Of a stretch of DNA of 64,000 nucleotides, positions 56,491-56,741 are shown one piece after another (the first letter of the stretch is position 1; the number at the start of each line of letters is the position of its first letter). The position numbers and the translations under genes were made by a program. The notes beneath the pieces are model-generated. The model did not search any database and was not told the origin of the DNA. It saw only the letters and a list, made by a program, of their open reading frames with translations. The stretch is taken from NCBI GenBank assembly GCA_964016885.1, contig OZ024751.1:21080001-21144000 (forward strand). Reading direction: 5' to 3'. Source of the stretch: Eledone cirrhosa (taxonomy: Eukaryota).

Positions 56491-56567
56491 ATATTGTATT
56501 TTGTCTGATGAAGGCATAGCATATTGTTAATATGATATCCCCGAAATATATATAATGAAATAAATAT
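56491..56567 (+). ncRNA. Minimal type I hammerhead ribozyme in the PLE terminal repeat
   Basis: tattttgt-CTGATGA(56505-56511)-stem II (catatt/aatatg core)-GAAA(56543-56546)-T-ATAT-A-TA-atgaaata. Stem I closes with two G-U pairs, stem III has a palindromic tetraloop, predicted AUA cleavage after 56554. Confidence 0.8.
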
Positions 56568-56741
56568 GGTTTTATAAATATAGTTTTCCATTTATTTAAT
56601 ATTGTAAATATACTCCAAGTATTTGTCGAGTGCTTTTATATCAGTTATAAATATTTACTAGTTGTAACCCAACAATTTTAAATATAACTTTACATGTATC
56701 TTGCTCCAATACTGTTGAGCGCTTTATATTATAACTGAAAA

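Follow-up and report, generated by a model that had tools for sequence, protein, structure and literature searches.

The Hydra clade of Penelope-like elements (PLEs) was described by Craig et al. (2021; PMC8557442) and includes Hydra-1_Obim of Octopus bimaculoides. The repeats of PLEs carry minimal hammerhead ribozymes, which show low activity and occur as opposite-strand pairs, and a circular template has been proposed for them (Cervera and de la Pena 2014, PMC4209133). Insertions whose arms are inverted and carry a tail at one end have also been described (PMC3846280; PMC8557442). Biochemical evidence comes from PAc, the Poseidon element of Anolis carolinensis (Frangieh et al. 2024, PMC11167929). 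In vitro, reverse transcription of PAc starts at two internal sites that bound the tail, and both strands are cut and extended. Ribozyme mutants leave PAc insertion unchanged, uncut RNA dominates, and 172 nt of downstream RNA are required (PMC11167929).

The locus analysed here, in the octopod Eledone cirrhosa, had been the subject of a preliminary description, which placed a hammerhead ribozyme in every repeat unit and concluded that the template was circularised or uncleaved, with internal priming. That inference is sound in outline and is already published PLE biology, as are hammerheads in PLE repeats, internal initiation of reverse transcription, uncut templates and the idea of a circle. 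Beyond it, we describe a twin hairpin in the 5' UTR, which the ends of insertions follow.

Results

The element and its two arms

The window, by which we mean the whole 64,000-nt stretch analysed (contig OZ024751.1, 21,080,001 to 21,144,000), holds a large inverted insertion whose features are collected in Table 1. The minus and plus arms are joined 5'-to-5' (head-to-head) with one extra base at 53889. The tandem unit had been put at 3970 bp, and the spacing of identical hammerhead motifs agrees. Identity between the arms is 99.9%, and all 4 substitutions among the unit copies are private to a single segment. Classical L1-type twin priming was rejected, since the arms overlap in sequence and do not abut.

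Table 1. Coordinates of features in the window; positions with a plus sign are counted from the predicted hammerhead cut
Feature	Position	Strand	Remarks
737-aa ORF	56742..58955	+	telomerase-like RT (YRDD), CxCx5C linker, C-terminal GIY-YIG-type nuclease
second intact 737-aa ORF	50194..52407	-	two amino-acid differences
plus arm	53890..60664	+	6775 bp = 1.71 units; 5'-truncated in RT; long end +140
minus arm	48576..53888	-	5313 bp = 1.34 units; 5'-truncated in 3' UTR; short end +49
minimal type I hammerhead motif, plus arm upstream of ORF	56497..56562	+	predicted cut after 56554
hammerhead motif, downstream repeat of plus arm	60467..60532	+	identical; predicted cut after 60524
hammerhead motif, minus arm upstream of ORF	52587..52652	-	identical; predicted cut after 52595
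hammerhead motif, downstream repeat of minus arm	48617..48682	-	identical; predicted cut after 48625
box 1 hairpin	56612..56634	+	ACTC-CAA-loop-TTG-TC-GAGTGCT; starts +58 after cut
box 2 hairpin	56703..56723	+	GCTC-CA-loop-TG-TT-GAGCGCT; starts +149 after cut, 18 nt before ATG
box 1 in long tail of plus arm	60582..60604	+	arm ends 8 nt before expected box 2 start
boxes 1 and 2, 5' UTR of minus-arm ORF	52426..52537	-	
target site duplication (14 bp), left copy	48562..48575		
target site duplication (14 bp), right copy	60665..60678		
long end of older relic	48521..48561	-	
rest of older relic	60679..61054		tail remnant to 60690; SINE-like repeat 60692-60805
older relative, short inverted pair	32036..32425		long left arm (box 1 at 32121-), short right arm
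family C, two inverted pairs	10862..11272		each one long (boxed) + one short arm
family C, four more pairs	14995-15189, 40262-40444, 61083-61243, 62706-62933		
other boxed family, inverted pair	14430..14983		two hammerheads (GAUC loop); long + short arm
family D inverted pair	45835..46038		hammerhead; short + long (boxed) arm
family F inverted pair	18750..18975		decayed hammerhead; long (boxed) + short arm

The protein carries the RT motif YRDD, and its predicted model (pLDDT 88.9) has TERT 3du5 as top Foldseek match (E 1.6e-9). Pfam gave no match for the 737-aa protein, a PDB sequence search returned nothing beyond weak retron RT matches (E of at least 0.015), and the viral contigs searched held no relatives of the element. 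The best named homologue comes from Argonauta hians (39% identity). The marks of the nuclease (IVY..YVG, R641, E700 and N712) are invariant in 55 relatives, of which 8 matched PF01541 weakly (best E 0.0011). Between RT and nuclease lies an asparagine-rich stretch of low confidence (aa 486-509; 58170-58270); similar N-rich inserts are reported in rotifer PLEs (PMC3846280).

Compared with section 11 of PMC8557442, the protein has the Hydra-clade marks RWR at 37-39 (RWK in relatives), DKT at 118-120, C596-C598-C604, C694/C697 (CxxC) and C721/H723 (CxH), and no CCHH; by eye comparison, published Hydra proteins carry the same motifs. On these motifs the element is a young Hydra-clade PLE and a new member of that clade. 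As described for the clade (PMC8557442), a single ORF joins an RT with RWK-like, DKT and CxCx5C motifs to a C-terminal GIY-YIG domain, CCHH being absent, the repeat contains a hammerhead, relics prefer (TA)n, and there is an inverted 5'-truncated partner. Together with that partner, the partial tandems forming pseudo-LTRs, the tail and the target duplication are features of EN+ PLEs. The 3970-bp unit differs from the size of generally <3 kb given for the clade, and the young copy lies in an older relic, whereas the relics lie in (TA)n; PMC8557442 gives both the size and (TA)n as general tendencies. The tail is 91 bp long and wholly within the 5' UTR, compared with the 30-40 bp which that paper gives for PLEs. 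A non-LTR retrozyme (short non-coding tandem repeats with hammerheads) was rejected, since the unit encodes an intact 737-aa protein.

Head-to-head arms, a tail on one arm and a target duplication (there ~10 bp) are likewise found in the inverted-pLTR insertions of Arkhipova et al. (2013; PMC3846280). The young element interrupts the tail of an older relic belonging to its own lineage (pieces 48521-48575 and 60665-61054), and the 14-bp duplicated word is the element's own +15..+28 on the other strand. The relic lacks box 1, which is deleted, and the target is not 8 nt before any box. It also holds a decayed hammerhead at 60847(-) and a short-ended plus-strand arm (61006-61054). A truncated copy of a SINE-like repeat, present at 60692-60805 and abundant at ~20 other places in the window, interrupts the relic just beyond its hammerhead cut site. 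Hydra-type insertions nest beside or inside each other's ends (14995, 61054-61083, 11057-11071, 48562), mostly in flanking (TA)n.

The hammerhead motif

A strict motif scan of the window located CUGAUGA at 56505(+), 60475(+), 52644(-) and 48674(-), each with the 3' core GAAA-U-AUAU-A-UA, bearing out the claim of a hammerhead with AUAU in helix III in each unit. The four copies are identical across 80 nt, with a stem II of 31 nt. In the copy at 56497, the 5' strand of stem I (56497-56504) is followed by CUGAUGA (56505-56511), stem II (56512-56542), GAAA (56543-56546) and a helix III of 2 bp with an AUAU loop; from its predicted cut to the ATG at 56742 there are 187 nt, exactly as had been stated. 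Reportedly, minimal type I hammerheads of PLE pseudo-LTRs are also treated by Lunse et al. 2017. When five stem-I pairs were demanded, the scan gave 5 matches in the window, whereas 100 block-wise dinucleotide shuffles of it averaged 0.01 (max 1), so the motifs are not due to chance. Further strict motifs, beyond those of the preliminary description, lie in short relics at 32226-, 32341+, 60847-, 14679- and 14879+, and another at ~45912+.

The motif had been called a complete minimal type I hammerhead. The conserved core (CUGANGA, GAAA, UH) and stems I-III are indeed present, and, as in PLE pseudo-LTR hammerheads (PMC4209133), an intact core is combined with a long stem II, a tiny palindromic helix III suited to dimer cleavage and opposite-strand motif pairs 100-700 bp apart. 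The word 'complete' nevertheless calls for caveats: position 10.1-11.1, a conserved G-C in the pseudo-LTR hammerheads of PMC4209133, is A·C here in the favoured register and U·U in other copies, and helix III is all A-U, with AUA as cleavage triplet. A register with a bulged A restores G-C at a cost of 1.4 kcal/mol and breaks the register common with an old copy at 32226(-). This old copy retains pairs one to eight of stem I as well as the register of stem II, in which it has three both-side changes relative to the young one (by eye, in two sequences only). U·U at 10.1-11.1 is found in the old copy and is common among Hydra relatives (L003, L005, L008, L012, L033 and others). The predicted helix III of a dimer has -3.2 kcal/mol, compared with -7.2 to -13.6 in five G/C-containing comparators, and the monomer MFE structure is not the hammerhead fold (z 0.70), the GAAA strand pairing with the 5' flank instead. 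Judged by these predictions, the motif looks weak.

A search with Rfam hammerhead models, proposed in the preliminary description as a check, returned no hammerhead match in the window at gathering or at E<=10. Among relatives, RF00163 matched 1/14 scanned, on an antisense insert, which indicates that these models are insensitive to the Hydra clade. In 77 related metagenome loci, hammerhead motifs occurred 32 times in sense (27 loci) and 4 times in antisense (3 loci). Fourteen lie close before the longest ORF, with the predicted cut 83-187 nt upstream of its ATG, so this layout is normal for the clade; two more sit farther upstream of broken ORFs. A palindromic helix III as a rule of the clade was rejected, strict palindromes being found in only 6/32 sense matches.

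Twin hairpins in the 5' UTR

Two copies of a bulged hairpin, RCTC-stem-loop-YY-GAGYRCT, lie between the predicted cut and the ATG (boxes 1 and 2). We examined the 46 UTRs with at least 90 nt upstream among 48 loci whose match reached the N-terminus. These UTRs (9119 nt) contained 56 box cores in sense and 0 in antisense, compared with 13 in 89,044 nt of ORFs. Two cores were present in 21/46, one in 14 and none in 11, several of the last having a mis-set start or a variant core. The spacing from box 1 to box 2 was 57-91 nt in 13 tabulated cases, and the published consensus of Hydra-1_Ajap shows both boxes as well.

To score the stem, boxes were anchored on CTC and GAG only and the three pairs above the 2-nt bulge were counted. 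This upper stem was Watson-Crick in 207/306 cells, compared with fractions of 0.18-0.26 at other offsets, and its pairs exchange among C-G, T-A, A-T and G-C across relatives. A rerun gave 203/306 in 102 boxes against 100 +/- 8 (max 130) in a swap control; these cell counts include chance boxes from ORF bodies. Folded singly, the two window hairpins were no better than shuffles (z -1.2 and -1.0), and RNAalifold found no structure in a MAFFT alignment of 33 boxes, in which the variable loops were misplaced. Counts of G·U versus C·A did not favour action of the hairpin as RNA over action as DNA. The pair exchanges and counts identify the hairpin as conserved and covarying across relatives.

A twin hairpin at a fixed offset from both insertion ends was not found in full-text searches of the openly accessible literature. 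In their accessible parts, PMC4209133, PMC11167929, PMC3846280 and PMC8557442 do not describe it, and the text supplements of PMC11167929 gave no match. As far as the literature searched goes, the twin hairpin is an addition beyond known PLE biology; the hammerhead observation was already known.

Insertion ends

The plus arm had been said to end 140 bp past the equivalent cut and the minus arm about 50 bp past it. Bounded by the target duplication, they end at +140 (+141 with 1 nt of microhomology) and +49 (+51 with 2 nt), respectively, so both figures stood. Each arm thus stops exactly 8 nt before a hairpin (+49 vs +58; +140 vs +149).

The same relation is seen in relatives. Ends were mapped by Blast of 38 reference UTRs against 77 related loci, whose metagenome contigs may be collapsed repeats, and the boxes were not used in choosing the ends. 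In 12 families, 14/21 mapped ends lie 0-4 nt before a box (box 1, n=4; box 2, n=10), the gap being that of the maximal match, inflated by TA microhomology. Excluding three cross-family matches and one inversion-junction mirror leaves 14/17 ends before a box (binomial p ~6e-11 under a generous uniform null). The true ends with no recognised box behind them are L001, L019 and L021, of which L021 lies before a degenerate second box. Several of the fitting ends are in non-TA targets (L004, L015, L023, L034, L038). In the window itself, the short arms of five relic families stop 3-5 nt (maximal match) before box 1; two family C gaps read 9 and 10, owing to a mismatch close to the terminus, and the gap of relic C5 was left out.

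A similar picture came from two RAD-seq runs of a related sample, although the sample is possibly another species and a few loci could dominate the counts: 8011/39,741 and 9087/41,601 aligned reads depart from the reference at 56586, continuing through the short end and on into (TA)n. Depth was 9,400-13,600 in the hammerhead-tail bins vs 28-609 in the ORF bins. Taken together, these alignments indicate that end positions follow the two conserved hairpins, not the ribozyme.

The arms of an insertion also tend to differ in a regular manner. Among inverted pairs of boxed families in the window, classed by eye, 12/13 consist of one short and one long end, as do 9/9 in families recognisable without the box (p 0.002 each, under a null of independent choice of end class). 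In the 12 pairs, one arm stops before box 1 and its partner passes through box 1 to a fixed longer end; in the exception, 18246-18700, one arm stops inside box 1. Box 2 itself lies past the long end and is absent from most relics. The 13 comprise six family C pairs, the young insertion, the relics at 32036, 14430, 18750 and 45835, the interrupted relic, which is reconstructed, and 18246-18700; 24593, 47733, 61739, 62444, 20025, 33442 and the SINE-like pairs were left out of the count. The relic at 32036 carries hammerheads at 32226(-) and, with stem II deleted, at 32341(+).

Other insertions of this general kind were observed. A further boxed family has a long end at 63430-63540(-), with no partner arm before the end of the window. 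At 24550-25150 a palindromic insertion with long and short arms combines a tail of ~40 bp with another type of hairpin and a degenerate core resembling that of a hammerhead, and probably belongs to another PLE clade. At 41218-45713(-), 7.3 tandem copies of a 615-bp non-coding unit, with 0-3 differences between units, lie in (TA)n; the array has both boxes, ends ~3 nt before box 2 and has no clear hammerhead. It is a candidate non-autonomous passenger of the Hydra enzyme.

The template

The preliminary description inferred internal priming and read-through of the cut site. Both are supported, since each arm sets out downstream of the predicted cut and passes through two hammerhead sites; the positions of the ends are another matter, for they follow the hairpins rather than the ribozyme. 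Nearly all relic arms in the window cross the predicted cut or start upstream of it, the start of the arm at 14340 relative to the cut being obscured by decay.

A circular template has been proposed for PLEs (PMC4209133), and circles are shown for hammerhead retrozymes (PMC7229834). For the present element, tandem transcripts would self-cleave to 3970-nt monomers and ligate, and the circle would serve as template; we consider this unlikely. Arms of 1.71 and 1.34 units that cross the cut site are what a circle would give, and no variant is shared by position within the tandem, as expected of a single template unit. However, an uncut repeat of identical units yields the same variant pattern, so that the private substitutions (4/4) fit circle and read-through equally. 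The hammerhead appears to be under structural selection and occurs in sense in 27/77 relatives, but its weak helix III, its non-canonical 10.1-11.1 pair and the competing fold speak against efficient cleavage. Uncut RNA is the dominant substrate of PAc, and no RNA-seq reads end at its cut (PMC11167929). In addition, ~9/12 paired arms of family C stop 17-20 nt upstream of GAAA (by eye), as would be seen if a linear RNA ended, or a strong stop lay, upstream of the cut. We therefore rank an uncut template RNA, which we regard as probable, ahead of a circle. A circle would in any case concern the template only, and the hairpins could still set the start sites.

Several observations touch on the cut site itself. 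Only one arm, 61006-61054(+), has its start at the predicted cut or a few bases from it; flanking (TA)n makes this arm ambiguous, and it would possibly fit a copy of cleaved RNA. In a contig from RAD-seq run X1, 56554 (the cut) is joined to 56497 (the 5' edge of stem I) with two letters between, at a depth of 629. No pile-up of DNA read ends at 56555 was seen among the matches listed. Family C, whose helix III is long and near-palindromic, also has solo copies at 34540-34600 and 63366-63409. In its pair at 62706, both arms stop at that same place, 17-20 nt upstream of GAAA, and are joined by runs of A and T that are apparently untemplated.

Discussion

The results presented above suggest a model in which a recent head-to-head insertion of a Hydra-clade element was shaped by hairpins that bind the RT and define two sites of internal priming, the template RNA having probably remained uncut by its hammerhead. 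We hold this model with fair confidence on the strength of the sequence comparisons. In it, the GIY-YIG domain would cut both strands of AT-rich DNA at staggered positions, the target in this case being an older copy's tail, and both DNA ends would prime cDNA, as they do in vitro for PAc. The hairpins, to which we infer that protein binds, would hold the polymerase such that copying begins 4-8 nt to the hairpin's 5' side, at hairpin 1 for one DNA end and at hairpin 2 for the other. The hairpin positioning a given start would thus be left uncopied, and the 91-bp tail would equal the spacing of the hairpins. Such an uncopied hairpin must act on the template or on an intermediate. Both cDNAs would then run through the hammerhead site before their ends are joined, and the ribozyme, being weak or gated by protein, would not define the ends of the insertion.

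The closest parallel is PAc (PMC11167929). Both elements have two internal start sites that bound the tail, with a hammerhead upstream of both, and insertion into the own repeat, seen here, is proposed for PAc. They differ in that the PAc ribozyme overlaps the start codon and reverse transcription of PAc begins within a single AC-rich stem-loop, 111-118 nt inside the ORF. The accessible text reports no duplicated signal for PAc, whereas here the sites are 91 nt apart and each lies before its own copy of the hairpin. For inverted-pLTR insertions, PMC3846280 proposes self-priming on an antisense template; in contrast, the hairpin-defined ends of the Eledone element are as expected if target-primed copying of sense RNA took place twice.

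Dimerisation is predicted for PAc (PMC11167929). If a dimer sat on one RNA, the pairing of short with long ends would be accounted for, and we tentatively suggest, as a conjecture on which we would not insist, that the two hairpins form a ruler: a protein dimer would sit on the two hairpins of a single RNA, one protomer for each DNA end, with each start ~8 nt away. If this were true, a single step would give rise to the tail, to the pairing of one short with one long end and to the head-to-head insertion. Any RNA with two such hairpins, for example that of the 615-bp array, would be writable into DNA at defined starts, and the hairpins would set the start much as telomerase RNA sets the register of its template.

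Alternatively, the hairpins might act as DNA, a nuclease trimming a longer cDNA or donor intermediate so that the ends are sites of resolution. PMC8557442 suggests that the tail arises by endonuclease resolution of an intermediate, the D. virilis nuclease is cited in PMC11167929 as needing the tail for recognition, and the young element did insert into its own tail sequence. The covariation, too, is Watson-Crick without a strand-specific excess of G·U. Against this, the genomic ends of PAc match the start sites of RT in vitro (PMC11167929), and the target of the young element, +15..+28 of a relic with box 1 deleted, is not 8 nt before a box. On balance we regard trimming at the DNA level as doubtful.

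It is improbable, in our view, that the hairpins serve in packaging, translation or as a promoter, and that ends cluster beside them because AU-rich bases pair with TA-rich targets. Most relics do lie in (TA)n, and TA microhomology blurs their ends by several bases. Yet the entire UTR is AU-rich and ends are confined to two sites; non-TA targets hold several of the fitting ends, the young arms keep their 8-nt offset in such a target, and the strict pairing of short with long would be unexpected. Finally, an assembly fold-back artefact, to which arms of 99.9% identity might point, is most improbable for the large inverted structure in view of the 14-bp duplication, the two different ends that conform to the rule, the substitutions private to each arm and the many small pairs with the same layout.

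If the model of hairpin-set priming is correct, the hairpins would provide a concrete cis signal for how a telomerase-related PLE polymerase picks its internal starts, and for why one arm has a tail. Start positions would be predictable from sequence alone by the hairpin rule, and many small palindromes embedded in (TA)n in this genome would be recognisable as stubs of Hydra-clade insertions.
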